Source: Patiria miniata (Eukaryota). From it: DNA of 64,000 bases. The stretch covers positions 979,897 to 1,043,896 of the forward strand of contig NW_024037061.1 of assembly GCF_015706575.1 (NCBI RefSeq), given 5' to 3'. Positions 1,783 through 61,487 of the stretch are shown piece after piece. Position 1 is the first letter of the stretch, and each line of letters opens with the position of its first letter. The notes below the pieces were generated by a model. The model was given only the letters and a program-made list of their open reading frames with translations, searched no databases and was not told where the DNA came from. The translations under genes and the position numbers were made by a program.

Positions 1783-2125
1783 CTGACACAAAAAAGTTCA
1801 TTCAATTTTAAAGGCATATAGGATCATTTGCTTTTCATGCATTTTGTTTGTTTCCAATAATAACACCGCTCAAAATCCAAAGTACCGGTAGAAAGTTCAA
1901 AACCTAACCTGCTGAAGTGTCAGCTCAGTGCGTAAAAATGTTTCTAGAAAACTGTGAAATACCCTGCACAGCCAATAAAAATGTCAAAATAAAATTCAAC
2001 AGACATGATAGAAGACTATAGTGTGGCAAGTAATTGTTGATATTTACAATAAGCTCCTGATGCTAAATTCAGTATACAGATTTTTTCAATTCAAACTTGC
2101 TATTCTAGGTGATCAGTATAATTAA

Positions 2126-2643
2126 AGGGACACTAGGTCCTGAAATCCCCGAAAATGTTATGTTTTGGATTGTTTACTTAGCCTATTTCAAACATCTGGT
2201 TGAAAGGAAACCAACCTAATGTCTTACCCTTCCCGAGAAAATACGAAAAAAAACCCGCTTGTTTACATCAGACATGACGGAGTACGAATACATTTTTCGT
2301 GTCGTTCTCAGTGTGCGATATACACGTTGTGTGTCTCGGGAACAGCGGTGACCAATCACCAATGCAAAAAAAGTGGTTTCTTCAACGTCCGCAAAAGGCG
2401 AACACTTTACGAATGAAATCACAACTAGCATCCAAACAGCTCCAATTTATGGGGTCGCAAAAGTGGACCCCGAAATTCATTCTGGCACGCATAATACAGG
2501 AGTAACACAAAAACGCCCAGTTTTGAAAGGATAGTTGTGTGGATGTTTATATCCTACTTTGAAATGTTATTTTCCGATTAACATCATCTCGTTCAAAGCG
2601 CGTTTTGTAGCCCAATTGGGCTGTTCCAGGACCTAGTGTCCCT
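2126..2643. mobile_element. TTAA-flanked MITE (piggyBac-like target site), TIR AGGGACACTAGGTCCTG (REV3L intron 3)
   Basis: Perfect 17-bp TIRs with TTAA at 2122-2125 and 2644-2647. Confidence 0.7.
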
Positions 2644-2750
2644 TTAACCTGGGCTGAAAGTTACCGACTACAGTGAGACACATGTAATACTTTCATCTAC
2701 TCAACAATGTACCTTTTATACGTCGACATTAATTCCGGTTGTGGGCTTAC

Positions 2751-2825: not shown

Positions 2826-3298
2826 CTGTTGCAAAAACAGAAAAAGAAAAATTTAACGTGAACTGTTATATTGAGGATGGCTTACATATGAGGTAACTTA
2901 GTGATAAGAATGTGACGTTTACATGTTTAAACAAAAAGACATTCTAAATCTGTTTAAAATTTTCCCCAAAATTTACTCGAATCCCGAATAAAATAAAAGG
3001 ACTTGTTTCGAGGAAAAGTTGCATGCATGAATTAAGCATGAATACCACTGTTTTTTTACCTGTGCAAACAGGAAATTTACTGTTCTTCCTTTTCCCATTG
3101 AATTAACCACAGCCAGACTCCATTTTTATCCTTGAAAATACAATTTAAGTTAATATTTACACAGAGCTTGATAAACTTTGCCTTTCTACAAACGAAAGAA
3201 ACAAAAAAGTAATAAATGAACGAAAACAGGAAGTGAAACAGAAAGCAATTTTGTGGCAAGTGTTGGACTTTAGCCAAGCGCGTAGCTTAACTACTTAC

Positions 3299-3488
3299 AC
3301 TGCCTGCACGCCGACAACTTTAAAGACGTGCTGCGTGTTACCAGACGCCTTCCCCATAGCAACCTGCAGGGCCAGGTCTAGGCTGGTGGCAAATTGCCGC
3401 AGGTCCTTGTCGGTTGCGAACTCCTGCGGGCCGCATTTCACGTAGAAGTACGGGAAGACGCCGTGGATGTGTAGGCATGTCTTCTGAC
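3299..3488 (-). CDS. REV3L: REV3L exon 2; (G)QKTCLHIHGVFPYFYVKCGPQEF...NTQHVFKVVGVQA
   Basis: Matches human REV3L GQKTCLHLHGIFPYLYVPY...TAQHVFKV. Acceptor ctctctacag, donor GTAAGT. Phase 1 in, phase 2 out, consistent with the flanking exons. Confidence 0.8.
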
Positions 3489-3810
3489 CTGTAGAGAGAG
3501 TGCATCGAACCACGAGGTCGTGGAATGAATATGCATGAGAGAAATGAATAATTCATGAGGTTGGCTTTTGTCTATCCAGTATGTAAGGGAACACCCCATA
3601 GATGTGAAGGTACATCTTCTGACCTGCGGGTAGAGTGGGTCAACCTATGAGGTCATGGATATGAATATGCATGAGACAAATGTTTAATCATGATGTACAT
3701 GTACGGTATGTACAGGAACATGGCGTGTTTAGGCATATCTTCTGACCTACAGGAAAGCGGGTCAAACTCGAAGGTCTTGGAATGAATATGCATGAGACAT
3801 CAGTTTAACA
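3440..3810. repeat. Tandem repeat, three units of about 125 bp, duplicating the REV3L exon 2 acceptor region into intron 1
   Basis: The units share ..catgtcttctgacctgtag..gaatgaatatgcatgagaNaaatg. Unit 1 overlaps the real acceptor and the start of exon 2. Confidence 0.75.
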
Positions 3811-5137: not shown

Positions 5138-5280
5138 GGCGGCGGTCAGCCAGATGTCATCCCCTCAATACGATGCTCTGACAAAATTGTTAAAAGTTGG
5201 GAAAAAATATTGAAATCACTTGCTTGAAGAACTTAATCACTTTGCATTTAATTATAAAGTTGAACACAGATATTGACTGG

Positions 5281-5390
5281 AGCGGGTTTGAACCTGTGAC
5301 CTCCGGATTGCCGTTCCGGTGCTCTACCAACTGAGCTATCCAGTCCTACCGGGGGTACTTGTATGTTGGCGGTTCCCCAATTTGTCAATG
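5281..5390 (-). mobile_element. tRNA-derived SINE, family A copy (head ggggaaccgccaacata..GGGCTGGATAGCTCAGTTGGTAGAGCACCGGAACGGCAATCCGGAGG..)
   Basis: tRNA-like A and B boxes but poor acceptor-stem pairing. Identical flanking head and tail in four copies. Lies about 145 bp upstream of the REV3L ATG. Confidence 0.7.
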
Positions 5391-6904
5391 TCATTGTTCG
5401 AGGGCACTATCCCCCACTATAATCAGAGACCGCCAACATGTACATGCAAACGTGTGTTCACCGTCGATCGTGGACGTCCTATTGTCCCTCTTTTGTTTGT
5501 ACTCTAACTTCTTAGGAAGACTCCCATAGTTTTGTACACGACCCCAATCGCGGACGTATGCTGGGAATCGTGGACGATATTGTTGTCTTTTGGTACAAGG
5601 TTTGAAAAGATGAACACGTACATGTATACATGCAAGGCATCACACCTAAGTTCACGATGCTCGTAACATCAGCAATGCCGTTAACTTGAGGAATAGCCAA
5701 CAGGGATCATGCATAGAGAATACAGCTTTTTATTACACATTAAATAAAGCACAAGGACATGAAAGAGAAAGTGACTATTATGCATACATGCATGTAGCCA
5801 CATACATAATAGTGCATCTACATGTAGTCAGTTTCTGTTTGTGGTTGATTTTACATAATACATTTTCGCTTTCTTAAATTGCAAAGTACATGTACATGGT
5901 TAGATCATGTTTCGTATTGTGCACCACAAAACAGGAATATGCAAAGCACACGTGTAGTGCAAGGCTCTATATGGATGAACACGTACCTTGTAATTAGGTA
6001 AACATTCGAAAATGAAAGTTTGCACAATTGATGCACTCATGTCTCCGACGCGTGCAATGGGGTGAGATTCGGAGGGGGGGGAATAAAAAATCCACCAACA
6101 ATCCACACTAATGGCCAATAAGTTTATGGATGTTGCCTATAAAGGGTAAAAGATGAGCTAGTGTATTCATAAGTTTTCTCCTATACTTTGCTAAAGCTGA
6201 AAGTGACTAGGACAAGGAAATACAAGAGATGATACCTTTGTGTAACACAGAGGCAAACACATTGCAAGGAAAAGGGTACTTAAGACAATTTCAGTTTCTA
6301 ATAGGCACTTTCATTTATCTCATAATTGCTCAATCGAAAATATAACAGTTTTGCACTGGCTTCAAAGTTATGATGTGATAAGGGTTACGTACGAACAAGG
6401 AAAGACATTTTGAGACAAATGTCCAGTCTGTTCCTACGTACTAATCCTTATTATAAAATATCAAATAATTCTTCACATTGACTCTGAGTTTTCTAGGTTT
6501 TGACTGACAGCATTCCTCCAGGGTACATCTTCTTAAATCAGACAACATTAGGGGATCATTAAATGTTATGCTTACAATGTACTTTGTGACTTTATCTAAA
6601 ATGTCTGTCCTTCGTTACGTACATGTACGTAACACTTTTAAAAACAATATCCACCGTATTTTCTAATTACATTGTACACAGTTGTTGAACTTACTTGCTA
6701 CAGCAATGGGTGGCCTTCCCCTTCTATTCCTCGGGGAATAATAGCTACTTGTCACTCTCTGTTGACATTTTTCAACAACAATGTTCGGTACCTTTTGTAC
6801 ACAAAAACCGAGAGGCAAGAATGATGTTCGGTATAGCTAAATGTTCGGTATAGCGGTGTTCGGTACAGCGACGTTCCACTGTACATATCGGGTACTGTAT
6901 GCTT

Positions 6905-7330
6905 ATGGGCAATTCCACGGTTACTCACGTTACATTTTTGATGTACTTTTGAGTTTCCTTGGGCTGTAATTACCTCACTGAAAAGGTTTAATAACTGTTA
7001 TCCCCATGGTAGATAGAGTAAACCTAGACCTACCTAAGCACCAAAGATGACATCCAGAAAAATGTGCTACATGTATGTATGATAAATAAGACGCACAAAA
7101 TCGGTTACTCACGTTACATTTTCGTAACGTGAGTAACCAATTTTGTACGTCTTGTTTATCATACATACATGTAATACATTTTTCTGGATGTCATCTTTGG
7201 TGCTTAGGTAGGTCTAGGTCTACTCTATCTACCATGGGGATAACAGTTATTAAACCTTTTCAGTAAGGTAATTACAGCCCAAGGAAAATCAAAAGTACAT
7301 CAAAAATGTAACGTGAATAACCATGGGATT
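6905..7330. repeat. Near-perfect hairpin of about 425 bp (arms of about 210 bp, centre near 7123)
   Basis: 6910-7120 is the reverse complement of 7126-7330, for example ttactcacgttacattttcgtaacgtgagtaacc at the centre. Confidence 0.8.
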
Positions 7331-10044
7331 GCCCTTATGTAGATAAATGTATTAACGATATATCACACTGTAGACGTATGTACATGGGTACAGTGCTTAA
7401 ATTACAAATGAGATACATTGTGGTACTTACTGGTACAGGAACAAGTACAAGTACAATGTCATTGCACATGTACCAGGTCAAGCAGGTACTTACATATGCA
7501 GGGGACAAACTGAAAGGATTTCAGAATCGTAAAATGCCATATGCTGTATTGTAATTCCCTTTGTCTACTGAATAAAGTTTGCATGTGTAATTTACACATA
7601 TATATTCTATACTACACATATGTTAACCATTAGCACATACATGTATGTATGTGTTTATTCACAGAAGAATCAATCAATAAAAACAAAAAGTGCCAGGGTT
7701 GTTTCGGGCGCTATACAGCAGGCATGCTTTTTTTTTTGTACAGCAGTACAGGGAGAAATACATGCACCGGTACATGATGTACGTAGGACGGTTTCAGGCG
7801 CAAAAATGTGACTAAAAGGGTTAAAGTGCGTACATGTCGTACAATGTATATGTGGGACATACATGTACATCGCAAATGTCCATGGTTTCTTTTCAGTCAC
7901 TCTACCTTTTGAGCATTTATGGCCTGCAAGTTTGGCTCCCAAAAAGGGGGTTACACACATACATTGTAGAGCTACATGTATCTAAGTCGGGAGCGATGAA
8001 ATTTAAAGTGACATCATGATACGACATCACATGACATGTGACGTCACATTAAAGGTGCAGTTTTCTAAGGCCTACATCTACAGAACAACATGTATATTGG
8101 TCCTGATCACTCTGCATTCTTCTTTTGCACAAGTTCTATCATCAGGCTATAACATGACATACATGTATGTATTCTAATTGCCGAAACAGCCATATGTTTG
8201 TCCACACAATAAACTGTTATTATAATACACGTTTATACACGAGGCGCGCTAGACATTAACAGACCATGCTACAATAATTCACATACATGTCTATCCAACA
8301 CCAGACACAAAAAGACTGTAAGCCATTCATCGCCATGGTAATCATGATAAATCTTGCCTGTCGTCATGACAACCAGCACTTCGTGGGCATCGTTCAGCAT
8401 GTTTAACAGCTAATTTTAATGCTTTTAAGAATCCTATGTAATAAATCTCAAGAAAACGGGATTGAACATTTGCAAATGAAAATATTTCAGAGTAATTTGG
8501 CACACGAAGCACTCTTTAAATACATGTATAATGTTTGCGCAGATCGTAATAGTCTGGTTCTAGACAATTTCAGAACTTTAAGAACAGTCACATCCCATTC
8601 TTGAAAATTTAAATAATTTTGTACATAAAATGTCTGTCAGAAAAAAAAAGATAGGTATTAACATAATACGTGCAGTATGGTATGCAATGGTTGTCTCAAA
8701 TTTATGTTGCCTGTGAAAATTTATCATTTGTTCAGTTTGAGTAATTCATACGTATGTAAATTGCAACTGCAGGTGTTTGGTTGCTGCTAATGTAGAAAAC
8801 ATGCATAATGTGCATGTTTAATACACGTGTAATAAAATTGTATTGACATAATTTATGTCTTTTACATGTGTAGCTACCAGTAGTACAACAAGTAGGCCTA
8901 ATATTGTTTCAAGGTCATTTTACTTAAATATTGGAAATTGTCCGTATGGTGGCAAATTTACTATGCATGATGCACCTTTGCTTCAGAACTATCAGCCAAA
9001 AGAAATGTGCATATTTGTATGAAGAATTGTTACCTGAGGAATTTTCAACAAAAACAAATTGCATTTTTTATTCACAGCCTCTGCAACCCTATTGAAAAAA
9101 TAAGGCTCTTGTTTTGGGTTATACTTTTGTGCAAAAACAGATTAGCCCTGTCATAGACTGGTTCTCAGTCTATACATTATCAGTTACAAAAGGGGTGAAG
9201 TAATATGTAATTATTCTTAAACTAAACCTGCCAATTGTTTCAGTCTGTGTGAAAAAAGAGAAAAAGAAGAACAAGTTAAAAACAACATCATTGTTTAAAA
9301 CTCAGACGCAACGTTACAATTTGTTTGGCCTGAATTTAAAATTTTCCTTCAATTTTCTGCAAATCTCTTCCCCCCCCCCCTTTTTTTTTTGCTTTAACTG
9401 AAGATCTCAGCCCAAAACCACTGAGACTACATGTTCCGGGTTTCGAAGATTATACCAACACTAGACAAAGCATGGCCAAGGCACTGTCAAATACATCCAT
9501 CACCATGGCAACCGCACAGGTTGCTATGGAAACAGCAACTGGCATAGTGTCCGCTTCTGATTAAAGAACCATTCCAGCCAACGAAGCATGAATGGTTCGA
9601 TTCTTTCGTAAGGTAAAATGATAATAGTTGGAAATATCGTAAAAAAAAGAGAGAAGAATACGAAAGTTGTCACACGTCTATTGTACCTTGGAAATTTGCT
9701 GATTTTGTGTAATTAAATTGCTTCACGGAATATGGTATCGGTACATGAACATTTTGTACATAATTGCGGTCATTAAAATAGGATTGCTGTAAGTCTGAAG
9801 CTAGCATGGTATACAAATAATAATTTCAAGGTGACATGGTGTATTCTATCTTGTCACCCCATGAAATTATTCTTTCCATTGCACGAATGTGAAACATGCA
9901 TCATTTGTTTTATAGAACACCAGAATAAACCCTCGTAATTTGATTGGTAAACTTGCAAACTGGTAACTACATGTATGAATGAATACACAGGGTAAGTAAG
10001 AAAAAAATGAAACCCAAATGGAAGGACCAATTTCCAAATGAAGT

Positions 10045-10430
10045 TTTGCTTGTAGCACTTTCAAAATCTAGGATATGAAAGCCCAATCAATAAGCTTTCT
10101 TTTACTACAAGAATCATTCCCAATCACTCATGTACTTTTCAAGAATTTTCAATACAAACACCATTTTAAAGTTCTGTCCTCGGATTACAAAAAAAGTAAG
10201 TGTTCCTTCAGCAAAACGGAATCAATTCACACACCTTTGTGAATTGTTTTGACCAGTCTTGCTGAAACAGCACTTACCTTTTTTTGTGATCCGTGGACAG
10301 AAATTTAAAACGGTATTTGTGTTCAAAATTCCCAGACTTGAAAAGTAAATCGATTGATTTGAATGAATTTTGTACTAAAAGAAAGCTTATTGATCGGGCT
10401 TTCATATCCTAGATTTTGAAAGTGCTACAG
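10045..10430. mobile_element. Foldback MITE of about 385 bp, TIR gtagcactttcaaaatctaggatatgaaagcccaatcaataagctttc
   Basis: TIRs of about 45 bp with a palindromic interior. Confidence 0.7.
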
Positions 10431-10989
10431 GCAAAACTTCATTGAGGAATTGGGCCTGCCATATTTTTTTTTTTTTTTTACTCACCCTGTACAGCATCGG
10501 AGCCATCAGATCTGTGCTATACCCCAACCAATAGTGTGACCATTCAATGGAAGTTCTATTTACCGTGGAATTGAACTTCATTTTGCAGTGCAGTGCACCG
10601 TGCAATGGGGTGAATAGTTCAATGACAAATGATCAACGACCAGCCAATCAGATGACTGGGATTTATTCAGGTGTTGAATAAGACCTGTCTAGGTTTGCCG
10701 GATATAATTTGATCTGAAGCTAGTTTGGAACATATCTCACAGTGATCTCAAATTGGAGTGAATACATTTTTGTTGGCGGCGCCAGTCTTTTGCCGTCAAA
10801 ATTGGCTCCAAATATGTTTAGATTTAGGCCAAATCCGGTGCAACATCAAATTTGTCAAAAAAACCCAAACAGAATTGTCAATGTTTATACCCACAACTTT
10901 GAAATAACAGGCCCGTAGGCAGGGGAGGGGGGGGGGAGGTCTGGGGTCGGACTACCTCCCCCCCCCCCCCCAATTTTGTTTTAAAAATT

Positions 10990-12390: not shown

Positions 12391-14139
12391 TTCTACCATG
12401 TACATGTAGATCTACTGTATGCGCGCCCGGCCATTTTTGTGCATCAGAATCGGCCCACATAACAACACATTACACTAGACACCACCTTACACTAGGGGGC
12501 GCTGTTCATATACTTGCGCTTATATCAAAATGGCGCATTTTAAGCTTTTGTACTTTTTTCTCCATTTTCCAGTGCTACATGAAAATTGTTTGGTTCTTTA
12601 GAAAAAAATAGTTCGCAATGCGCATTTTGTTGTTTCTCATGTGCGATTATGATTCAATAGCCCATGCCCCCCATGGTCAAAAAGTGTGTGGGGGGGGGGG
12701 ATATATACTCCATCCCCCCCCCCCCCCCCCCCACCCACCCCACCCCGGAGATTTATGCCCCGGGTCAGGGAACCAGCCTACAGGACAATTTTGTTTTTTT
12801 TCCAGCATCTACGAACACAAAACTTCAAACAAGTCAGTGTACTGTAACAATATTTGCTATAAAATACTTTCCCCCCCCAAAAAAAAAAATCATCAATTTC
12901 TTAAAATTACAGCAAAAGCAAATTTGTTACATTTGCACCTTTAAACCTGTCCTGCCATTTTACCAGGGTCTGGACTTGTCAAACTGAATTAGGAATTAAA
13001 TTACATGTAGAAGAGGTCATGTGGCCTTTTACAGAAAATACAACCTCATCTAACCAATTTAGGCCAAACAAAATAAATGGGGTGTTTACGGTAACAGCCT
13101 GAAAAAAATCAAGGCACCGGTCGGTAAGGAAATAATTGTATTTTGTCATTTTTTTTCATCCCAGTTCTTGCCTGTTCTTTTGCAATGCTTGAGACTCAAC
13201 CATGTACATTGTTCATGTACTTTTTGGGGGCAAAATGGCAATAAAAAGTTTGAGGTCGGCAATTTGGCCACAAAAATTTCAGGGTTACGGTAAACACACA
13301 ATTTTGTTGTTTGGCCTTACAGTAAGTAAACATACATATTGTACATGTTGTATATTGTACAAGTACATAGTACATGAAGCATCCCATATTGAAGCATATT
13401 GTCAAGAAATAATACATAATTTACAATAAAGATCCCAGAAAAAAATAAACAGTTGCCTTATGTTATTAATAAACTGTACCAGTTCATGTTACGAATGTAG
13501 CTGTTTGACAAGTGTAAAAGGGTCCTCATGCTAATATTCTCCAATAAAGAAAACAAATCATTTCATTTACATACATGTACATCGATTGCACCCAAGTCGT
13601 TCAAATTTTATAAATGTCTACATTTTGTAAGTCTGTGGCAATACCGGTATATATTGACACTTCATCTTGATGTGGAGTCTTAATTGATGCAAATATCCTG
13701 TTGTCATGGAAACTGACTCAGATGCTCCACAAGGTCCTCTGTGTGTTAATTATTTTGTGTGGTCAAATTGCATGTCTCTGTATTAATAACGCCGTTCGGC
13801 CGGATTCCAGCTATTCCCATGGCAACATTTCACTTTATTTCTTGAGGCACACATGTTCACAGAGGTGGAAAGATTCAAGCGTTGCTACGGGAGCAATGAC
13901 TCTCGTTAGATTGCCGACGTCAACATTTTCTTGAGTTGCTACCAAAATTGAACTAGTTTACTGTGATGTACTCAAAAAAACATGGCAGTTTAAGTTGAAA
14001 AATTAGTTTTGAGATATTTTTGGCAACAGCACATTTAGAGAGCAAGTTTTTTTTTTGTAAAGAAGGCCGGTGGGGGGGGGGGGGGGGGGGTGGAGGGGCA
14101 CATATACATGTAGTACACACAGGAATATATGTACACCCC

Positions 14140-15790: not shown

Positions 15791-16535
15791 TTGGTAAACA
15801 CGCCACCTGCAGACATAGGCCTAGGCCTATTTGCCATTCAAAACCAGCGCAGCTCGCAGGCCATGCAGGCACAATTCTGGACACAATATGTAACTGTGTA
15901 AGCGACATTTCAGCTTCCTCCGTCAGGTAAAAATATGAAAAAAATGTGTTTTATTATTTTTCGCTATGGCAGGAGAGATTCCTACCCTGGACTCTATTGC
16001 GTGTACACAACGGAGTCCAACCTGGGCTATATTATTATTGAATCACGAATGATAATTTGTACACGTAATTTTTCGTGCCCTGGCCAGTTTTCAACATGGC
16101 GCGGTGTCCACGAAATTTATGCTCCCATCAAATGTCAAAATATCAATTAACTACCTCGTTTTCTCTATTCTAAATCCATCCCAAAAAACTCAGGATTCAA
16201 ATGATACCTTTTCATGAAGATAAGTGGTCGCCCACTCTGCAAAACACCTGGAAAAATATCAGCAAAAAATCGACACACACCTCCGCTCCAGACCAGAATC
16301 GTCGTGTTGAAGCAATGTAGTCAACAGAGGGCGCTCGACTCAAAACATACTTGTAAGAATTAAACTTGGACAAGTCTGATGTTTTCTGTGAACTCTCATA
16401 TTTTTGGCTCAAAATGAATTTCTATTTTTATCTTTCTCCTATGCTGTGAAATCGTTACAATATTAGTAATAACAACAAAAATGTTGTCTTTTCAAGGAAT
16501 CTGCATGTTTCTAATTTAATGTCATATCACTTAAA

Positions 16536-17060
16536 GGGAATATACATCATTTGCTTTTTCTGTAATTTTCAGAAATGAATGGAGTTGGGGGGTTGGAAAT
16601 ATATAGCAAATATAGTTACACGGACTTTTTTGAGGTTTTGGGTTCGAAAATGCTATAAAAACCAAGAAAAACAATCATTTTCCTGTAGTCTGGCTCCCTG
16701 ACTCCATTTAAGAAGAAAAAGAGCAGTTTACATATATTGGGGAATTGTAAGGTCAGGGAGCCAGTCTAGCTGGCTTGTACCCGTTCATAGGTGTGTAATC
16801 GATTGCAAACAAGTGCGATGGTCAACTGGGGCCAGTATTTGAAAAAAAGCCAGTTTTTTCCAATGCTGATCGGCCGATCAGCGTTGGAAATTGGTACAAA
16901 AATACCACTTTTCTTGAAAATGACAGTATACCAGGTGCCATGATTTTACAGGATGCTTTACACTGTCATTCACTAACAGTCCAGCAAGGTATTTCAAAAT
17001 GATTTGGTAGTTTTATTTTTTGATGTTTGCAAATGTTGTATTTTCCCTTTAACTTTGGAC
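16536..17060. mobile_element. TTAA-flanked MITE family 2, TIR AGGGAAtATACAtCATTTGC
   Basis: TIRs with flanking TTAA. Internal palindrome ccaatgctgatcggccgatcagcgttgg. Partial copies lie at 58140-58340 and 60170-60390. Confidence 0.65.
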
Positions 17061-19318: not shown

Positions 19319-19560
19319 GGAGTGTGGCCTAGTGGTTAGGGTTCATGACTCATATCAGAGAGTCAGGGGTTCAAATCCAGCTGCTGACCATATGTTGTGT
19401 CCATGGGCAAGCCACTTCACCTCAACTTGCCTCTTTCCACCAGGGAATATAAATGGGTACCGGCATTAGCTTGGGAGCAACCTGCGATGGACTGGCATCC
19501 CATCCAGGGGGATTAGAAATATTCTCAGTCGTTTCATACCAAGCAAAACGGAGATAAATG
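19319..19560 (+). mobile_element. SINE family B copy (PARP4 intron 3)
   Basis: gtgtggcctagtggttagggttcatgactc..ggggttcaaatccagctgctgaccatatgttgtgtccatgggcaagccacttcacc.. Confidence 0.7.
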
Positions 19561-20559: not shown

Positions 20560-20665
20560 ATGAGGAACCACCAACATAGGGCTGGATAGCTCAGTTGGTA
20601 GAGCACCGGAACGGCAATCCGGAGGTTGCAGGTTCAAATCCAGCTCCAGTCAATTGCTCTGTTCA
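20560..20665 (+). mobile_element. tRNA-derived SINE, family A copy (PARP4 intron 5)
   Basis: Same head (ggaaccaccaacatagggctggatagctcag...) and tail (ccagtcaattgctctgttcaacttcaacaaa) as the other copies. Confidence 0.7.
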
Positions 20666-23334: not shown

Positions 23335-23550
23335 GCATTAACCCGAACAGTGCTCAACCCATCAAACCCCAATGTTTTGTTGGAATTTGTCAGGATGGGT
23401 ACAGTACCCCTAAACTGACAGTCTTTTACATTGGGTTGGCACACCTCCAGAATCACAGTCAGAAACATGTGTGTGCAGTTTCCCATATGGTGTTGGAATT
23501 TGCCAGGATGGGTATGGTTCCTAGTAAATCATGCTAGGGAGTTAGGGTTC
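23335..23550 (+). repeat. Interspersed repeat family C copy (aacccatcaaaccccaatgttttgttggaatttgtcaggatgggtacag...)
   Basis: About 200 bp, nearly identical to 39940-40145. Confidence 0.7.
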
Positions 23551-23559
23551 AAGTTGTGC

Positions 23560-23890
23560 TAGTTGTTAGGGTTTGTGGCTCATGATGAGGGGGTCAGGGG
23601 TTCGAATTCCAGCTGCTGGCCATATGTTGTGTCCTTGGGCAAGCCACTTCACCTCCACTTGCCTCTCTCCACCCAGGAGTATAAATGGGTACCGGTATCA
23701 GCTGGGGAGTAACCTGCGATGGACTAGCTTCCCATCCAGGGAGGAATAGAAATCCAGCTGCTGGACATATGTTGTGTCCTTGGGCAAGCCACTTTGCCCC
23801 CACTTGCCTCTCTCCACCAGGGAATCAAAATGAGTACCGGCATTAACTGGGCAGTAGCCTGCGATGGACTGGCGTCCCATCCAGGGGGAA
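23560..23890 (+). mobile_element. Cluster of two to three tandem or nested SINE family B copies (PARP4 intron 8)
   Basis: ggggttcgaattccagctgctggccatatgttgtgtccttgggcaagccacttcacc.. is repeated. Confidence 0.7.
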
Positions 23891-24146
23891 CAGAAGTTTT
23901 GGTCCTCAAAAATCAAGCTGTTCGAGTTCTATAACTCATACCAATTTACTCATATTTCTTTTCAAAAAACGAATAAATTTCCTTTCGTTGATCATGTGAT
24001 GATGTAACAATCCTTTCTTAGCTTTGTTATACAATGTACACTTTTTCCAAGTTGTAAATTTTACTAGGCCTACATGAATATATGTGAATACATTTTGAAC
24101 AAAAATTATCTCCCACCCCCCTTTCTCGACTTTTTTGTTGCTTTAG

Positions 24147-35253: not shown

Positions 35254-35935
35254 ACAGGGTGAGTCAAAAAAAGCGGAACCCAAACCCCCAAAAATATATT
35301 TCATATTTAAAAAAATATGTAGCACCAAAAATAATAATGACTGGAAAGCCAATTTCATAAAGCTACTTTTAGATGAAAAAATACTGAAATTGCTCAATCC
35401 GTTCAAAGAATATCACCATTTAAACGCAACGACCCTAAAACCTGTCTCGTCCAAAAAAGCAATTTATTGTGCGTTTTGACTGTTTGGAACAACAAAGAAA
35501 ATGACACAGAATACTTGTTTCAACAACTGTCACCACCTGTAGTGCACAATATCTTTATTAACAACCCCGGTTAGGCAAACAATATAATTTATAAAATCTA
35601 CTTTTTTTAAAAGATGGGCCTTCAAAAAGACTTTGTTGAATATTTAAACGTTTAAACTGAGGTTTTATCGCTGGTGATGTTTAAAGACAATTGTGATGCC
35701 GATTCTTGAAATCACATTTATTTTTTTGGACGAGACAGGTTTAGGGCCATTGTGTTTAAATGGTGATATTCTTTGAACGGATTGACCAATTTCAGTAATT
35801 TTTTCATCTAAAAATAGCTTATGAAATTGGCTTTCCAGTCATAATTATGTTAGGTGCTACATAGTTTTTAAAAATGAAATATAATTTTTGGGGTTTGGGT
35901 TCCGCTTTTTTTGACTCACCCTGTAGAAAACAGTG
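35254..35935. mobile_element. Foldback MITE of about 680 bp, TIR ACAGGGTGAGTCAAAAAAAGCGGAACCCAAACCCC (PARP4 intron 26, abutting exon 26)
   Basis: Long arms at 35254-35470 and 35700-35935 are reverse complements. The left terminus creates a CAGG|GTGAGT donor and the right terminus an acceptor-like ccctgtag. Confidence 0.75.
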
Positions 35936-38218: not shown

Positions 38219-39035
38219 GTAAGAACAGAAATAAGGAAGTTTTTGTTTTAATTTATTTTCGTTTTAATTGGAAAAACTGACTTTCCATATCAAGAACATG
38301 ATAATTTACAGAAGCTGTTTTGAGATGTCTGCGATCTATTATTGGGTAATGGAAATTGTTACTGCAATTGACTCTTCAAAAGAGTGGACTCGTGATTCTT
38401 CCAAATTTGAAAATTGATTCTGTTCGATTCTGACGTGTAGTCGCCCAAGCTTAAAGGGAAAGTGCTCAAAATCTTTTAAGATGATGCCTAACTTGATGAA
38501 CTGTTAGCTCTTTGAACAAAAATGAAATGCTGTATATTTGGAGAAAACGGGAACAAGCATAAACACAATGTTTTGGATCTCGATTTCAATTTCAAAGTTG
38601 CCGATTCGTAGGTTGAATTGCGCCCTCTCGTGACTCAATCTGAAAATCGGCATTCAGGACACGATTCGTATTCAGCCAGTTGTTACCCATTCACGGATTC
38701 GCCCAATGCAACCCAACTACAAATTTGAACCCGCGGGGGCTGATTCACGGAAATTTCCAAAAATGTGTCGCTTGACATATCTTTGGAAATAGCCTTTTGT
38801 TGTTTTTCTTGAAAATGACAGCTTGACAGAGGGAACAATTTCACAGGGAGTTTAGTGTCATTGTCATCTTTCATTAAAGTAGCTTTCTAACTATAATTTA
38901 GCCGGTTGTTTTTTTAATCGATGCAAATGGTCGACCTTACCTTTAACTTCCTCCTATAAAAAAGAAACTTATATTCCTCTAAATTTCTCGTGCAAATTTA
39001 TTTTATTCGTTTGATTCCTCACATAGCATCGATGC

Positions 39036-39939: not shown

Positions 39940-40145
39940 AGAACTCAACCCATCAAACCCCAACGGCATGTTTTGTTGGAATTTGTCAGGATGGGTACAG
40001 TACCCCTAAACTGACAGTTTTTTACATTGGGTTGGCACACCTCTAGAATCAAAGTCAGAATATGTGTGTGCAGTTTCCCATATGGTGTTGGAATTTGCCA
40101 GGATGGGTGTGGTTCCTAGTAAATCATGCTAGGGAGTCGGGGTTA
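39940..40145 (+). repeat. Interspersed repeat family C copy
   Basis: Nearly identical to 23335-23550. Confidence 0.7.
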
Positions 40146-40388: not shown

Positions 40389-43296
40389 GTAAAGAAGACA
40401 GAAGAGGAGTATGAAAAACCAAAAGAGAGGGCAATTATGTGGGGCAGTGCACAGCGCCATCGGCGACGTGAAATTCCAGATGAGGAATTGAAATTACAGG
40501 GCAATACTGATGGGATCACCTTTGCAGAGCCTGCTGATAGCTCACTTGCCGAAAGAAGTCCACATCGTTTTCCATCACCAGCCACAGGGTTTGCATTCTC
40601 TGCGCCTTCACCTGCGTCGCAGGCCGCTCATCCTGCACTTCAGGCCGGTGATCCCGCCGTCGCTGAGGCCTTGTCCTCAAGCTCTGTAAGCACTGGTTTC
40701 TTTACATCCACAGCACCTCGACAGGCTCGTGCCTCTAAGTTTAAATCGATGCTACCTCCTGCCAGACTTTATAAAGCAAAAGGAGTCTCACTTCAGGGAG
40801 AAGCCCCCACTGGAGGTCTGTTTGGAGGACCTTCTCTTCGCTCTGGCTTTGATGAGGGACTGACCCTAGGTCATCAACCCCCACTGGAAGCTGGTGTTCC
40901 AAAGCCTCAAACAGTAACCGGGTTTGGGGGAACTTCCGTAGCCCCTTCTTATGGTAGAGTGTTTGGTGCCCCTTTTTCTGGTGGTATGTTTGGAGGACCT
41001 TCCCTTCCCTCTGGCTTTGTTGAGGGACGGTCCCTGGGTCGTCAACCGCCACCGGAAGCTGGTATTCCAGAGCGTCAAGCAACAGTCGGGTTTGGGGGAA
41101 CTTCCCCAGCCCCTTCTTCTGGTGGACTGTTTGGAGCCCCTTTTTCTGGTGGTCTATTTGGAGGACCTTCCCTTCACTCTGGCTTTGATGAGGGACAAAC
41201 CCTAGGTCGTCAACCGCCATCGGAAGCTAGTATTCCAGAGTTTCAAACACAGTCTGGTGGTCTGTTTGGGAGACCTTCCCTTCACTCTCGCTTTGATGAG
41301 GAACGCCCCCGGGGTCTTCAAACCCGACTGAGAGCTGGTATTCGAGGACATGGTGAAACAACACTGAGCGACAATCTGTTGGAGGAAACTTCCGAATCCC
41401 CTTCGTCTGGTGGTCTGTTCGGCGAACCCGTGGTACCCCCGGTTGGTCAAAGGCCAATACCAGCATTTCGCAAGCAAATACCAACCACTAGCATGCTTAA
41501 GGGATCTCCCAAGCCCAAGTCTGATGCTGGAGTGGCACCAATTCAACCCCCATGCCGAGAAGCCAGAAAATCTGCCCCTCAAGAGCCAGCCAAGGGCGAT
41601 TTGCTCTCTAAACCCCCAGAAGAAGCAGCTATGCCTGAATCATTCAAGTCAAACTCTAAAGGAACCGTAGGATTTTCCGACAGAAAGCCACAACAAATCC
41701 GCCTTGAAGCAGGAGGAGTTTCTTCAGGGTTTAGTTTTGGAAGTGTCCCACAGCAGCAACAAACGGCTGGCGAGTTTGCGTCCACAAGAAAAAAGGATCT
41801 GTCAAAGCTACTTGGGATCTTACAGCCAGAGCAAACAGAACCCATTTTGCATGCACGGTCCATGGCATGGCCAATGCAAGCCGCTAATTCTCCTGCTAGG
41901 TTAACCGCTGCCCCGCCCCGTCGCTTTGCTGCCACTGCAGCACCATCCCCACCGCCTTCCCGTAACGCTGAGGTCAGTACATATTCTGCATCACCACCAC
42001 CTCCTCCAACTGCCTTCTTTGCGGGGATACCCCCTCCCCCACCACCCGCCCATGATGGTATAGCGCCCGGACAGCCCCCACTTCCTCTGGACATGATGAG
42101 ACGCACAATTCAAGAGGCTTTGGAGCGGTTTTCCAGTCCGTCTGGGCGGCCTCCCCCTCTGCCACATGCAGGAGCATCAAGCTTAGGGGGATTGTCTGGA
42201 AAAGCAACCCCCGCGACATTGGGTCAAGTACGACAGAGGCAAGAAATGGCTGACGATTTTGCGTCCACTAAAGTGTCTGCGTCAGCAGGACAGACCTCTG
42301 TCACCTCTGGTCTGTTTGGGAGCTTACAGTCACAGCAATCAGAAACCACATTGCATGCACAGTCATTGGCATTGCCAATGCAAGCCACCAGTCAGTCCGC
42401 TGGGTCACCCCCTCCTGTCCCGCCCTGTCCTCGTCTTCCCCTGCCCCGTCGTCCACCCCCACGGCTTCCCTTTAGACCTAGACCACGTGATTTATATGAT
42501 GAATCACCACCACCCCCTCCACCTGCCCGTTCAAGGATGCCCCCTCCCCTTCCCCCACCACTTCCTGGTAAAGAAAAAGCACCCCGACAACTAGGAAAGG
42601 GAATTCAAGAGCCTCAGCTTGGACAGCCTGCTGCTGCGCCTCTGCCACGTGCAAGACATTTTAATACAAAAAGTTACTCGGCACTACTCGGGCTTGAGAG
42701 TACGGCTGAAATACCAGATCACGCAAGGGTTTCGAGAAGCAGCAATAAAGAAAGCTCAACACCCGTGGAGAGTAACAAAGTTAGAATAAGACAGGAGCTC
42801 TCGTCAGACATGCGGAGAAACCTGAAGAAAGATGCAGCCGAAGTTCCGCCACAGTTTTTCGATACTATAATGGCGTTCGGGAGTGATGATGCTGAGGAGA
42901 CATATACATGTATGGCTGCCGATGAGAGTCATAAGCCAAGTGATGAAGGATATGCTCCTGCAAAAGTCCGGGGAAGTTTGAAGAAGAAAAAGAAGAAAGC
43001 ATTTTTTGCCGTGTCAGAGGACCGTGGTAAAGATGTTGACGAGGAGCAGATCGGTAAAGAAACTGAGGAAATCCCAAGTCTCCAAAAGGCTTCCCTGATT
43101 CAAGATGCCAGAAGCCAACCGGTTGTAGAGCTCTGCCGTATGTCTCCAAAGATGAGACCTAGAGGCATAGGGCCTAAAGTCAGTCCAAAGCCTCCACCAC
43201 TTAGCCACACTAAGGACATCGTCAGTGATTTGTTGGGTGAGATAGAGATAAGCACAGCCATCAGTGCACCACTGGGCTTTGGCACAACAGAGTCAA
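40389..43296 (+). CDS. PARP4: PARP4 giant exon 32 (about 969 codons): proline-rich, low-complexity C-terminal region with four tandem repeats of about 57 aa (GGLFGGPSL.SGF.EG..LG.QPP.EAG.P) and PPPPPP stretches
   Basis: Acceptor tcatttttgtag. Continuous ORF from 40389. The in-frame stop at 43326 is bypassed by a perfect donor TCAA|GTAAGT at 43296/43297 (phase 1), which matches the phase needed by downstream exons. Confidence 0.7.
40800..41340 (+). repeat. PARP4: Coding tandem repeat (four units of about 171 bp, 57 aa) inside PARP4 giant exon 32
   Basis: GGLFGGPSLRSGFDEGLTLGHQPPLEAGVPKPQTVTGFGGTSVAPSYGRVFGAPFS / GGMFGGPSLPSGFVEGRSLGRQPPPEAGIPERQATVGFGGTSPAPSSGGLFGAPFS / GGLFGGPSLHSGFDEGQTLGRQPPSEASIPEFQTQSGGLFGRPSLHSRFDEE.. 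Confidence 0.8.
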
Positions 43297-44078
43297 GTAA
43301 GTTACTCTTTGCTTTACCTTCTAGTTAACCCATATGGGCATATTGAGTGTTTGTGGCGAAAGGTAACAGCTTTTTTTTTTCTCCGGTCATCTGGCGTGGT
43401 CACCTGGTACAAGGGGGTAGGAGGTTTGGGGGAAGTAGGATCTTTCTGGGGGGAGTACTGTTCAAAGGGAATGATCATGGGCACTTTCAGACAATAGGTG
43501 ACGCTCTTCATGGTGCTACAATTGCCAATGTTTTGGCAACGTTAAAAAGGGCACTCCTGGGAAAAAAAGGTTCTTGAAAGGTATATTTGAAAAGAAATCT
43601 GATACACTTACTTGCTCAGAATGCTTGGCGCATTTGAACTTTGAATTCTCCAGACCAAAGACACTGTTGCTAATCGCATGATTCGGGGCAAGCTCTTGCA
43701 TAGTTACGTAAGAGACACTCAGCACCAATGCATTGTTCACACTGGGTGGGAATGGCACAAAGACACCAGATCATGCCGGAGCTGGGGGTTGCTAGCGTAA
43801 GGCTTGCCCCGAATCATCTGATATAGTAACAGTCTCTTGGGTCGGGAGAGCGCAAAGTTTAAAAGGTGCAAAGCATTGGATTAAGTCAGCATTTCAGATT
43901 TTATTCAAATTTCACTCACAAATGGCTTATTTGAGTGCATGAAGTTTCAAAGTCCAAAAGGGAAATGATAGTTTTATAACATTTTGAATTACGAGGTTCA
44001 CCTACATTCAAAGAAACACATTTCACAAAACAATGTATGCTTGTATTCAATGATGTTGTTCTGTAATTTATGAAACAG

Positions 44079-46282: not shown

Positions 46283-46385
46283 GGGTACCGCCAACATAGG
46301 GCTGGATAGCTCAGTTGGTAGGGCACTGGAACGGCAATTCGGAGGTCGCATGTTTTAACCCTTTCCAGTCAATTTCTTTGATCGA
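46283..46385 (+). mobile_element. tRNA-derived SINE, family A copy (PARP4 3' flank)
   Basis: Same family. Confidence 0.7.
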
Positions 46386-46864
46386 TTTTCATTGTTTTCG
46401 TTTCACGGTTCAACTTTTCTCGGCATTCTTTTGTAGCATGTTAATGAATATGGGAAAAATGCACTTTCTTTATATACTGTATATATATTTTTTCTTTCTT
46501 TTATATACTGAAATATGCGGAGGAGAAGTTTGTGTGTCGAATGCCGGTTGGCAGAAAATGTAACAGACTTAACCGATAACTTGCCTGTTTACAAACCACG
46601 AAAATGAATGTGTAAATTTAACAAAATGTAATAAAACTAGAAAAAGTGTATAATTTCAATACTTTATACAACATTACTAATTTAGTATTATAACCATTAT
46701 AAATCATTATAGCAGTTTACCAGTTTATTTAAAGAAATATTTCTTAATGTTTACAATGTTAAAAAAAAAAATTAGTCAAACCTAAAACGGTGTTCTCAAA
46801 CTTCCGAAATGTGTGTGGCACCCACTAATTAAAATGGCGGCGCCCGTGTTAATTGCCATTCAGT

Positions 46865-47215
46865 TCAAGTAGTGCAAGGGCGGATCGGGGGGGGGGGGGG
46901 TAACGGGGGCCATCCCCCCCCCCCCCCCAAAAAAAAAACCCTCATGTTTTTTAAAGTGACCTGGCGATAATTAAGGCTGGCACTGTATACACCACCATTT
47001 TTTCCTCCAAAAAAAATGGTTGAAGTGGTCAGAAATGCCTCAGATGGCACCACAGAGCATCTAGAATCAAACAAATTCGGGGCCCTAAACATGCAGGTCC
47101 TCGCGAAACCCTCCCCGTAAATTTATTGGCCCACTTTTTGGGGGACCAACTTTTTTGCCCCCCCCCCAAAAAAAATTGTGTTCTGGATCCGCCCTTGAAG
47201 TAGTGAGGTGCAAAT
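46865..47215. mobile_element. Element of about 350 bp with 12-bp TIRs (GATCCGCCCTTG) and internal G(n)/C(n)/A(n) homopolymer blocks
   Basis: gttcaagtagtgcaagggcggatc ... gatccgcccttgaagtagtg. Related left-end copy at 50640-50790. Confidence 0.5.
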
Positions 47216-49250: not shown

Positions 49251-50639
49251 AATTATACGGCCTATACTGCAGCTTCCCCCTTTTAATGGCACTTTAGCCT
49301 GTTGCAATTCGCCTAAATATTCGAGAAATGTGGCCTGGGCAAACACAACTGGTTGAAAATTAGCAGTGAATTTCCAAGTTTTGAAAATCTAAGTTAATCG
49401 GAGATGTTCTAACCTGATTTGGCAGCATGAGCTTCGTTGCTCGCATGTTGCTGGTATTTACCTCATCAGTGGGTCTCATATTTAATGATGGTGGTCCAAC
49501 AGTTGCTGTAATGTGCAGGATATTCCTTATGAAAATCTTGGAGAAGTTTATTAACTAAAGAGTAAGTAAAATTGGCCTGATTTTGTTTTGCATATTTTTC
49601 TGGACTCGAGGTCCCAGTCTGGGGTAAGATAAGTGACACTGGGGAAAATACACTCTGTGAATTAAGCACGATCTTTAATTTAGCTACTCGATTCAGCTAA
49701 AAAAAAAAAGATGAAATTCTCAATTCAGGCACGATTTGGTGTTAATAAACAAAGATGAGATTTTACCTTTTTTGTGCTTAGGATGTTACATCAGATCCCG
49801 GTAACGGTATTCCAAATGTCTGTGTTGTATGTTGAGCTGATCGACAGGATAATATCAATTCATATACCAAAGCCTCGGAGACTTGTATTCCATAAGCAGC
49901 TTAGTGAGAAGGTCTGCAGGCAGATTTTCCATCGGAGCATTATAGCTACGACGTTTACACTATCATATTCCACTGCAGTTTCTTCTCCGATTTAAAACAT
50001 CTCATCGTTTGACCAATGCAAGTTCACGCCAATTGGCGGTGATATCCCTACACGAAACACATTCATCATACACACAATTCTCCGCAAGGCATTTTTTTTT
50101 TGTCAAGGGCCAACTAAGGAATTCCCAGTATTTTCATCTTGACTAAACTTAAACAACTGAACTAAGAACCCGCGTTTTTCCCCATTTGCTCAGCATTGCT
50201 TCATAGCATGATTACGTAAAATCGCCTCTCTTTAAAACTAACAATTATGCCACGAGGAATGCGTGCCTTTTCACCATCAGTCGTGGCAGAAAGGAAGGAA
50301 CTGATTGAAAGGCTAGGAATGTATCTTTCGGTTTTGACCAATATGTGGAACGCTTGGAATTTACACAGATTTTATTTAAATCGACATGCTGACATCATCA
50401 TAGTGATCGGACAATCTCTCTCGTTGTAGTGGGGAAGATAGGGGAAATATTCGGGGGAATTGTGCCTTTGATGATATGGCATTTGGCACGCAGTCAGAGA
50501 ATGTCTTACGAAAATATTTGGCTATAGGGCCATCGAAGATTTGTTCTTTGAAAAAAATATAAGTAGAATATCAATCAATTTCAAAATTTCAAAATGGCTG
50601 CCATTCTACCTATATTTTTTTCAAAGTACAAATCTGCGA

Positions 50640-50790
50640 TAGCCCTATGGCCAAATATCTTTGTCATGCAAGGGCTGATCGGGGGGGGGGGCAACATGCC
50701 CCCCAACCTCCCCCCCCCCCCCCAGAAAACCCGGACCAAATTCGTGTTTAAAGTGACGTCGCAATAAAGGGCAGGCACTGCCGCTAAATA
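50640..50790. repeat. Second copy of the G/C-homopolymer element left end (gcaagggctgatcgggggggggg..cccccc..aaa), adjacent to a 150-bp hairpin at 50500-50650
   Basis: Homologous to 46865-46990. The hairpin is atatttggctatagggccatcgaagatttg.../...caaatctgcgatagccctatggccaaatat. Confidence 0.5.
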
Positions 50791-52113: not shown

Positions 52114-52878
52114 TTAGGCAGAGTAGTAAACACATCGAGTGCTGACCTCCTGAAACTTCTCCGGATCATCAGCGCGATTTGCATCATTGAGCTGACACAG
52201 TTTCTGTTCTTGTTTGGTGCCCTTGATGTTGAAGGAGCGACATCCCGGTTCCTTCAGGCAGGCCGAGGCGCATCTCGAGGCGCTCTTGGTGACGAATTCT
52301 CTGATGACATGATCGACGAGGCACGAGTTTAGTTGCTGCTGCTGGGCGTTGCCTTGAGAGAAGCCCTGGTGCTGAATGTGTGCTGGTGATCGCAGGACGC
52401 ACATAGCTTTGGGTGGTTCTGTGCACGGGACGTCATTCCATCCTTGGGTTGTTGAACCAAAATAGGCGCAGTAATCACTAGAAGGGCTGGAACCATCCCT
52501 GATGCTGGGTTCTCCGGGCCTCCAGTTTGAGTACGCCTGCCCGACCTCCTGGCCCTCGCACCTCCATGCTCTATCGATGAATTTGCAACCAACCCACAAC
52601 CAACTTGGTCCTGCGTTCTTTGTCGTGGTTGCCATGAATGTATTCTCCTGTTCTGAGTGAGGAGCGGCCATCACCGCACCCATATCACGGCAACTAGCCT
52701 GGCCTTCGTCCCAGCTCGCCCCCTGGCCGGTGAGACGGTAGCAAGATGAGCCCCAAGGAATCCATAACGGCGGGCAGTATACGACAGCCGAAGATGGGGT
52801 GCAGAAATCGAAACAAAGCATCACAGCAAATGCGAAACTGACGCCTAAAACTGCGGCTTGACCTCCGTCACAGTACAT
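52114..52878 (-). CDS. Intronless secreted C-type lectin domain protein with a C-terminal PAN/apple-like domain (254 aa)
   Basis: N-terminal hydrophobic signal peptide. The CTLD core is CPPLWIPWGSSCYRL..ASW..ASC..MGAVMAAPHSEQENTF..WLWVGC...W.C...YSNWRPGEP....CAYF....WNDVPC...KAMCV. The PAN-like part is C..ASAC...C.SFN......C.L. Confidence 0.7.
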   Translation of the reverse strand: MYCDGGQAAVLGVSFAFAVMLCFDFCTPSSAVVYCPPLWIPWGSSCYRLTGQGASWDEGQASCRDMGAVMAAPHSEQENTFMATTTKNAGPSWLWVGCKFIDRAWRCEGQEVGQAYSNWRPGEPSIRDGSSPSSDYCAYFGSTTQGWNDVPCTEPPKAMCVLRSPAHIQHQGFSQGNAQQQQLNSCLVDHVIREFVTKSASRCASACLKEPGCRSFNIKGTKQEQKLCQLNDANRADDPEKFQEVSTRCVYYSA

Positions 52879-58139: not shown

Positions 58140-58340
58140 GAATCCCTTAAAGGGAATGTACATCATTGGCTTTTGCTGTAATTTTCGGAAATGAACTATT
58201 TTGAGGGGTAAGTGTAATAGATCAAGTATTGTTTCACTGACTTGTTTGAGGTTTTGTGTTAAACAAATACTGGAAAAACCAAGAAAAACATTAATGTTCA
58301 AGTAGTCTGGTTCCCTGTTGTATATTCCCCTTAAGGCAAT
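58140..58340. mobile_element. Partial copy of TTAA-MITE family 2
   Basis: Begins cttaaagggaatgtacatcattggcttttgctgtaattttcggaaatgaa.., homologous to 16536 onward. Confidence 0.55.
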
Positions 58341-60169: not shown

Positions 60170-60390
60170 ATGAAAAAATAGGAGCAGTTTTTGAAAAAAA
60201 GCCAGTTTTTCCCAACGCTGGTCGGCCAACCAGCGTTGGAAAAATACAGTTTTTCTTGAAAATGTCAGCACACCAGGAGCCACAATTTTACAGGGTGCTT
60301 TAGACTGTCAATCCCTCAAAATTCAGTAAGGATCTTTTCGTTTTTTGATGTTTGCAAGTGTTGTATTTTTCCTTTAAATTTTTTTCAATT
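60170..60390. mobile_element. Partial copy (3' half) of TTAA-MITE family 2
   Basis: Homologous to 16840-17060, ending gcaagtgttgtatttttcctttaa. Confidence 0.55.
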
Positions 60391-61487
60391 ATATAGGTTT
60401 TCCCGGCTATTTTAACACTTGTATCACACGAATTCCCTATATTGATACTTTATTTTCGTCCCCGATCATCGCAAAGCTCACTTCTCATTTTGAATTTCAG
60501 AAAACCACCACTATATTTCATTTAAGGTTCAGTTTAATTCAAATTGTTAGCGTTCCGATTCGTCTAAAATCTTTGCAATTCGTCTCGTGAAGCAATCGAC
60601 GTTGAATTGACAAAGCAAATTCGTTTTTGGAAATTCGTTTTCATGTTGTTGTCATTACATTTCATCCCTGGTGACTTAAATCGTATACGATTAGAAAATG
60701 CACCCAATCTTTAGACTTATTTGAAGAATTATGCGTATTAAAACAATGATAATTCAACATATATTTCCTTATATGTATAAATAAAAGTAGTTAGCTGTAA
60801 GGTATGAAATTTTATTTCCGTGTTTCACAATTAACATTAGAGTCAGGAATTGACATTTCACAATATGCACTTATGACATGGACACTAAGTATTAAGTTCA
60901 AAGACCTTCTTAATGTTGTTCTTTGATAGACATGCCTTATTTCTGTTGTTTTATTCATATACATACATGTATATCAAAGAGCAACATTACGAAGGTGTTT
61001 GATCTTAATGCTTAATTTCCATATGCTAAGCAAAGAGCCTATAGTGAAAGTTCTATTTCTGATTTTAATGTTAATTGTCAAATAAAACTCAAAACTTACA
61101 GCTATACTTTCATTTATAAGGACACATTTGTTAAAAATTTAAATTTAATTAATGCGCAAACAAGTCCAAAGATTGGGCACATTTTTAATCGTAACGTTTT
61201 AAGTCGCGAGAGACGAAATGTAACGGCAAGAACATTAAAACGAATGACAAAAAACGAAATTGCTTTTTCAATTCAACGCCGATTGCTTCACGAGACGAAT
61301 TTCAAAGATTTTGGACGAATCGGAATGCTAACAATTTGAATTATACTGAACCTTAAATGAAATCTAGTGGTGGCTTTTTGAAATTCAAATTGAGAATTGA
61401 GCTTGGCGATGTTCGGGGACGAATTTTAAGTATTGATATAGGGAATTCGTGTGATACAAGTGTTAAAATAGCCGGGAAAACCTATAT
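60391..61487. mobile_element. Foldback element of about 1.1 kb with roughly 300-bp inverted arms (MRPS9 intron)
   Basis: 60391-60700 is the reverse complement of 61190-61487, with ends atataggttttcccggctattttaacacttg ... caagtgttaaaatagccgggaaaacctatat. Confidence 0.75.

Follow-up and report, generated by a model that had tools for sequence, protein, structure and literature searches.

The T2 MITEs of Xenopus belong to the RepeatMasker class Kolobok-T2, and human MER85 is a MITE derived from piggyBac. Kolobok elements generate TTAA duplications and have 5'-RR...YY-3' termini, a combination that has been stated in contrast to piggyBac (PMC9587614). Hikosaka and colleagues defined the T2 family by its TTAA target and terminal AGGRR (PMC6004289), and TTAA-flanked TIRs of full-length Xenopus Kolobok transposons include AGGGGAACTATC, AGGACATGTC, AGGGGAACTATCATGA and AGGACATGTCAACCCC (PMC6004289). 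A survey of 157 piggyBac-like elements showed a highly conserved C at the first position of the TIR, and mutagenesis cited in the same study indicates that loss of the terminal G of piggyBac abolishes excision (PMC5381638); coral piggyBac MITEs and their partners start with CCCTT or CCCAT (PMC2872659). The genome of the bat star Patiria miniata carries Kolobok, in the form of the KolobokP lineage (Kojima and Bao 2022, PMC9587614).

We analyzed a window of P. miniata nuclear DNA (the whole 64,000-nucleotide stretch; ~40% G+C and rich in interspersed repeats) and characterized the TTAA-flanked elements E1 to E4. These are very probably Kolobok-superfamily (T2-like) MITEs, a superfamily assignment that depends on the TSD and a short (2-5 nt) terminal signature; the families are probably undescribed members, in P. 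miniata, of a well-known kind. Like the Xenopus T2 MITEs (Xmix and relatives), they are associated with TTAA and terminal AGGRR, are a few hundred bp long and non-coding, and fall into unrelated subfamilies that share their ends only (PMC6004289). They differ from the T2 MITEs in that the host is an echinoderm and not a frog, the similarity is limited to the terminal motif, there is no Xstir-like internal tandem-repeat expansion, and the window elements give no sign of recent activity.

Elements and families in the window

The elements and their flanks, numbered from the first base of the window, are as follows.

2122-2125, no strand: TTAA flank left of E1, a putative target-site duplication
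2126-2643, plus strand: E1, a MITE of 518 bp; TIR AGGGACACTAGGTCCTG, perfect over 17 bp
2644-2647, no strand: TTAA flank right of E1
12764-12944, minus strand: E2m, an E2-family copy of which the 5' ~175 bp are present (element 12764-12940, TTAA 12941-12944)
16531-17052, plus strand: E2 with both TTAA flanks (element 16535-17048, 514 bp; TTAA at 16531-16534 on the left and 17049-17052 on the right)
38451-38946, plus strand: E3 with both TTAA flanks (element 38455-38942, 488 bp)
53727-54620, plus strand: E4 with both TTAA flanks (element 53731-54616, 886 bp)
58147-58334, plus strand: E2s with both TTAA flanks (element 58151-58330, 180 bp)
60176-60377, plus strand: E2t, a 5'-truncated E2-family copy (element 60176-60373, TTAA 60374-60377)

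The TIR of E1 matches at 17 of 17 positions and at 19 of 20 once extended, and not one out of 2000 random pairs of 40-mers reached its local TIR score of 18. E1 has no coding capacity and is present as a single copy within the 64-kb window; a 21-mer from its TIR had no match in an exact scan of metagenome, genome and viral contigs. The two ends of E2 (AGGGAATATACATCATTTGC / AGGGAAAATACAACATTTGC) agree at 18 of 20 positions (p about 5e-4), and an exact scan of metagenome and genome contigs with the E2 TIR 21-mer returned one chance bacterial match only. E1 and E2 have no internal sequence in common and therefore represent two families. No copies of the window elements were present on L001, a contig of a related echinoderm.

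Three further copies belong to the E2 family. E2s retains 167 bp at the 5' end and 13 bp at the 3' end, is 78% identical to E2 across the common 5' part and has the ends AGGGAA and GGGGAA, with a TIR that is marginal in random-pair TIR scoring. It is a complete internal-deletion derivative in which both ends are kept, as is typical of cut-and-paste elements. E2t corresponds to the 3' ~200 bp (74% identity to E2) and terminates in ...TTCCT followed by TTAA. E2m (72% identity to E2) has an AGGTGC end adjoining TTAA, and it ends abruptly beside a G-run/C-run motif at 12690-12733. Identities of 72-78% among the E2-family copies point to an old family, and recent activity of E2 is therefore not supported.

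A preliminary description of this DNA had reported two MITE families, and at least two are present, consisting of non-autonomous TIR (class II) elements with constant TTAA flanks. Its placement of TTAA-flanked E1 at 2126-2643 stands, with the perfect 17-bp TIR; E2, given as 16536-17060, is a genuine element with slightly different coordinates (16535-17048). The two partial copies that it listed fared differently: the one at 60170-60390 is borne out as the 5'-truncated E2t, whereas that at 58140-58340, although an E2-family copy, is the complete 180-bp E2s with TTAA on both sides. The suggestion of an active or recently active system is not supported for E2, given the 72-78% identity of its copies.

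An internal palindrome (CCAATGCTGATCGG/CCGATCAGCGTTGG, 14-bp arms) is also present in E2, at about 16857-16890. E2t retains it at 60209-60261, with one change matched on both arms (A-T to G-C). Since the same change occurs on both arms, the palindrome may be maintained in the E2 family, perhaps as a putative protein-binding site or hairpin.

The ends of E3 (AGGGAAAGT / AGGTAAGGT) form a weak TIR that is not significant alone. Its 3' subterminal ~140 bp share 66% identity with E2, and on this similarity E3 is a diverged, distant relative of E2. E4 ends in AGGGGCA-GTTCGA / AGGGGTAACGTTCGA, and its TIR alone is likewise not significant (p about 0.11); paired inverted TTAAAGGGG 9-mers support the element, making E4 a probable fourth element or family. 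E3 and E4 thus have the terminal motif only, with no significant TIR.

TTAA flanks and the target site

TTAA adjoins all 12 recognisable element ends (E1-E4, including the E2-family copies), as expected from the TTAA flanks that had been claimed for this DNA. Four of the four ends of E2-family copies that were found via internal homology, and not via their flanks, are also next to TTAA; with 392 TTAA sites in 64,000 nucleotides, the chance of this for those 4 ends is p about 1e-9. No direct repeat is present in the 8 bases outside each TTAA pair. This argues that TTAA itself is the duplication, as opposed to a TA or 3-bp site, and that TTAA is not part of a longer TIR with a different duplication outside it. 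In a scan for TIR pairs beside each palindromic tetranucleotide, long hairpin repeats gave internal ‘flanked’ pairs.

We infer, rather than observe, that TTAA is duplicated upon insertion, because TTAA is palindromic and the window holds no empty site: joined flanks of each element, compared to the window by blastn, gave no paralogous empty sites. A junction-spanning match near 60176 was rejected as an empty site, being only the start of an unrelated inverted repeat with 294-bp arms.

TA and TAA/TTA are contained in TTAA, so the elements might be Stowaway-like Tc1/mariner MITEs (TA; AAGGG...CCCTT) or PIF/Harbinger MITEs (3-bp TWA) that have an extra T or A by chance, and TA-flanked Tc1/mariner-like MITEs do occur in the window (35253-35925, TIR CAGGGTGAGTC). 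However, the outermost T (left) or A (right) is present at 12/12 ends, for which the chance is about 0.3^12, and the 3-bp model for PIF requires unequal termini plus a conserved extra base. An origin from either of these superfamilies is extremely improbable. Two TA-flanked elements were found.

35253-35925: TA-flanked element with long inverted ends starting CAGGGTGAGT(C/A)AAAAAA
about 9990-10490: TA-flanked element with inverted ends of the same kind

They are probably Tc1/mariner-type MITEs, of a different superfamily from E1-E4.

Terminal motifs and the distinction from piggyBac

All 12 ends start with RR (AG at 11, GG at one) and none starts with C. The full AGGRR motif is present at 9 of the 12 (the variants here are AGGGA, AGGGG and AGGAA), while the non-AGGRR ends, GGGGA, AGGTA and AGGTG, are in old or diverged copies. 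The composite TTAAAGGRR occurs at 9 sites in the 64-kb window (3.8 expected), each of the 9 at an element end; the piggyBac-type TTAACCCYW occurs at 2 sites, unpaired, compared to 2.8 expected.

The preliminary description had taken TTAA as diagnostic of piggyBac and the termini as those of a possibly divergent piggyBac family. On this reading, the A...T termini, non-canonical for piggyBac, would be bound by a DDD transposase that inserts the element at TTAA. TTAA is present at every element end, the TIRs of 17-20 bp are near the piggyBac range of 12-19 bp, and positions 2-3 of piggyBac TIRs are known to vary (PMC5381638). The coral piggyBac-derived CMITEs also resemble the window elements in having TTAA flanks, short TIRs and a small size (PMC2872659). 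However, Kolobok targets TTAA as well (PMC9587614, PMC6004289), and a target common to both superfamilies does not discriminate between them. The ends do: the first C conserved in 157 piggyBac-like elements (PMC5381638) is found at 0/12 ends here, the coral MITEs begin with CCCTT/CCCAT (PMC2872659), and the arrangement in piggyBac is TTAA-CCC(T/A)T...(A/T)GGG-TTAA, compared to TTAA-AGGG...CCCT-TTAA in the window, where the terminal C/G is absent. In addition, TTAACCCYW is not enriched, and the 150 longest window ORFs encode no DDE_Tnp_1_7 domain. AGGG...CCCT is the canonical signature of Kolobok, a known superfamily that accounts exactly for the termini, and we regard divergent piggyBac MITEs as a highly improbable explanation. 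In the earlier interpretation the class and target site are thus correct, while the superfamily (piggyBac) and the recency (for E2) are not.

Ends of Kolobok-transposase loci

We examined whether such ends accompany Kolobok transposases in other genomes. A ~214-aa fragment of the Xenopus Tr7 transposase, rebuilt approximately from a machine-read supplement, gave 2 matches in a word-indexed search; one of these, P0019, was used as a HMMER seed and recovered 4470 homologues, of which 150 were used to build a profile. Matches to the profile came from Xenopus, other frogs, ticks, fish, bivalves and one sea urchin, and many contain a THAP domain. Five transposase-bearing loci were then taken from public assemblies for inspection of their ends, and 4 of the 5 have clean TIRs (AGGGA, AGGAG or AGGGG) that are immediately flanked by TTAA on both sides.

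L003: TTAA followed by AGGGAACCTCCACTCT, TIR 16/16, 5090 bp
L008: TTAA followed by AGGGATCCTCCACTCT, TIR 16/16, 6033 bp
L007: TTAA followed by AGGGGATAGGCAAAGA, TIR 15/16, 4411 bp, with THAP, transposase and P2RX7_C/KolX genes
L004: TTAA followed by AGGAGAACGGAAGG, TIR 14/16, 4309 bp

At the fifth locus, L005, the TIR (17/17) starts with GA, and TTAA is present at one side only. With four transposase loci having TTAA directly followed by AGGRR, the end architecture of the window MITEs is that of real Kolobok transposons. Autonomous Kol0-type Kolobok elements (Xenopus XKol, L003, L004, L007, L008) share with the window elements the arrangement TTAA-AGG(G/A)(A/G)... and have TIRs of 14-16+ bp; they extend over 4.3-6 kb and more and encode a THAP + DDE transposase (with KolX in L007), unlike the window elements, which are 180-886 bp long and non-coding.

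The same Kolobok element was found in L006 (8693-12653) and L007 (8681-13099), with 99.6% identity over the shared 4 kb. It contains THAP, transposase and antisense P2RX7_C-like (KolX) genes, is 3'-truncated in L006, and fits Kol0, a lineage that Kojima and Bao have described.

A group such as the Sola-type transposons generates 4-bp TSDs. Another or undescribed superfamily of this sort, with a 4-bp duplication, a chance preference for TTAA and purine-rich ends, might also produce elements like those in the window, as the Kolobok call uses the TSD plus a 2-5 nt motif and no transposase is present in the window. Set against this, the whole of TTAA-AGGRR, and not only RR, matches four independent elements with Kolobok transposases and also the published T2/Kolobok definition (PMC6004289), so that a different superfamily is unlikely. 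Very unlikely, too, is a TTAA-targeting transposase with non-canonical ends, either a piggyBac lacking the terminal C/G or an undescribed superfamily that has converged on Kolobok-like ends. More likely than such a transposase is a milder variant, in which a canonical TTAA-specific Kolobok lineage is present in echinoderms; the searchable open literature does not list echinoderms as hosts of non-P Kolobok (PMC9587614).

Comparison with KolobokP

The KolobokP elements of P. miniata are from the same genome and superfamily as the window elements we assign to Kolobok, and they have a similar LTDR unit length and RR/YY ends (PMC9587614). LTDR units are ~430-480 bp long with their own TIRs of 18-20 bp (Table S1 of PMC9587614). 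The window elements could accordingly be solo LTDRs of published KolobokP families, since they occur in the same species with a similar TIR length and a similar size (E1, 518 bp; E2, 514 bp; E3, 488 bp). Their ends are different, however. The published PaMi LTDR consensi begin with GGGTGC.../GGTAGC... and end with ...GCACC (PMC9587614), as opposed to AGGGA in the window elements, and the sequence supplement of that study contains 0/5 terminal 12-mers of E1-E4 (four left ends, one right). A blastn comparison of the window with three PaMi LTDR consensi (those other than KolobokP-2, 2N1 and 2BDR) gave no match, and no sequence similarity between KolobokP and the window elements was seen. KolobokP is also a composite of the form LTDR-INT-LTDR without strong target preference (PMC9587614), whereas the window elements are strictly at TTAA. 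We thus rejected identity with KolobokP solo LTDRs, because the ends differ and there is no sequence similarity to the three consensi compared; the probability of this origin is negligible.

Autonomous partner and proposed mechanism

The window contains no remnant of a Kolobok transposase (tblastn with 152 Kolobok proteins, best E 0.04), and a Pfam scan of its 150 longest stop-to-stop ORFs detected no transposase domain, including DDE_Tnp_1_7. Among the best 120 matches to the Kolobok profile there is no P. miniata protein and a single echinoderm protein, P0270 of Lytechinus pictus.

Kolobok elements are mobilised by a trans-acting THAP/DDE transposase that binds their ends, cuts the element out and inserts it at TTAA, the target being duplicated during repair (PMC6004289, PMC9587614). 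By analogy, we infer a similar mechanism for the window elements. The enzyme would be a Kolobok transposase from another locus of the genome, with a DDE catalytic domain and a THAP zinc finger for DNA binding, and would recognise the terminal and subterminal repeats starting with 5'-AGGRR; the element would be excised and reinserted at a TTAA, and repair of the staggered cut would leave a single TTAA at either end. Copies with internal deletions, the 180-bp E2s among them, may have arisen through incomplete gap repair, and would still be mobilisable because both ends are retained.

Host genes and other repeats

Host genes in the window include the following.

3298-3552, minus strand: POLD1-like N-terminal exon (POL3_N)
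about 23.1-30.9 kb, plus strand: vault-PARP/PARP4-like gene with PARP_reg, PARP, VIT and VWA exons
40437-43328, plus strand: ORF of 963 codons that appears to form a large 3' exon of the PARP4-like gene
52114-52878, minus strand: single-exon C-type lectin + PAN gene whose ORF matches a RefSeq protein of P. miniata at 100% identity (254 aa)

E1 lies ~650 bp from the POLD1-like N-terminal exon (3298-3552, minus strand) and is for this reason probably intronic; E3 is located between exons of the PARP4-like gene, and E4 is ~850 bp upstream of the C-type lectin gene. The latter has a paralogue (83%) on the same contig. Pfam searches with the 150 longest ORFs gave host domains only (PARP_reg, PARP, VIT, VWA, BRCT, Lectin_C, PAN, Ribosomal_S9 and POL3_N), and exons with Ribosomal_S9/S16 and BRCT were detected in the window. 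The 963-codon ORF is of low complexity and proline-rich, with no Pfam match, and contains three 168-bp tandem repeats (40810-41313) encoding units of the GGLFGGPSL-SGFDEG type.

Several other classes of repeat were noted in the window.

5274-5345, minus strand: tRNA-Ala(GGC)-like sequence
20580-20652, plus strand: tRNA-Ala(GGC)-like sequence
28108-28180, plus strand: tRNA-Ala(GGC)-like sequence (all three Rfam tRNA, 55-62 bits, and ARAGORN)
19348-19523, 23586-23900, 25272-25690 and 26344-26685: second SINE-like family with the B-box-like motif GGGGTTCGAATCC
6904-7337, 30150-30314, 50508-50664, 60391-61487 and 63013-63290: near-perfect, foldback-like long inverted repeats
10928-10971, 12690-12733, 46890-46933 and 50681-50724: ~44-nt G-run/C-run motif
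23372-23549 and 39968-40144: ~180-bp direct repeat, copies 95-97% identical and 16.6 kb apart

The tRNA-Ala(GGC)-like sequences, with a weaker copy at 46296-46396, sit in a ~100-nt repeat with copies that are 92-95% identical. As the GGC anticodon is unusual in eukaryotic tRNA-Ala genes, they look like tRNA-derived SINE heads or a dispersed pseudogene family. The second SINE-like family has at least 8 partial copies with head-to-tail pairs, all in the region of the PARP4-like gene, and includes a 3 x 114-bp tandem array (26344-26685).

The foldback-like repeats include examples with 214-nt arms and a 6-nt loop and with 129-nt arms and a 20-nt loop; a 1.1-kb element with 294-nt arms begins 14 bp past the E2t copy. 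The ~44-nt motif consists of 9-11 G, about 10-20 mixed bases and 14-20 C, and one copy is exactly at the E2m breakpoint. It could represent the ends of another element, or a homopolymer artefact of sequencing or assembly. Both copies of the ~180-bp direct repeat are in the PARP4-like gene region, the first adjoining the PARP_reg exon ORF; they represent either a young repeat or a segment that was duplicated locally.

Implications for TTAA-flanked MITEs and P. miniata

The copies associated with the POLD1-like, PARP4-like and C-type lectin genes are in or near genes, which is usual for MITEs. TTAA flanks alone are insufficient to assign a MITE to piggyBac; it is the first 2-5 terminal bases that part Kolobok (RR, often AGGRR) from piggyBac (C...), and with a piggyBac label on the window elements one would wrongly expect this sea star to have a piggyBac partner for them. 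The elements described here suggest past activity of a canonical TTAA-specific Kolobok lineage in P. miniata, beside KolobokP with its weak target preference.
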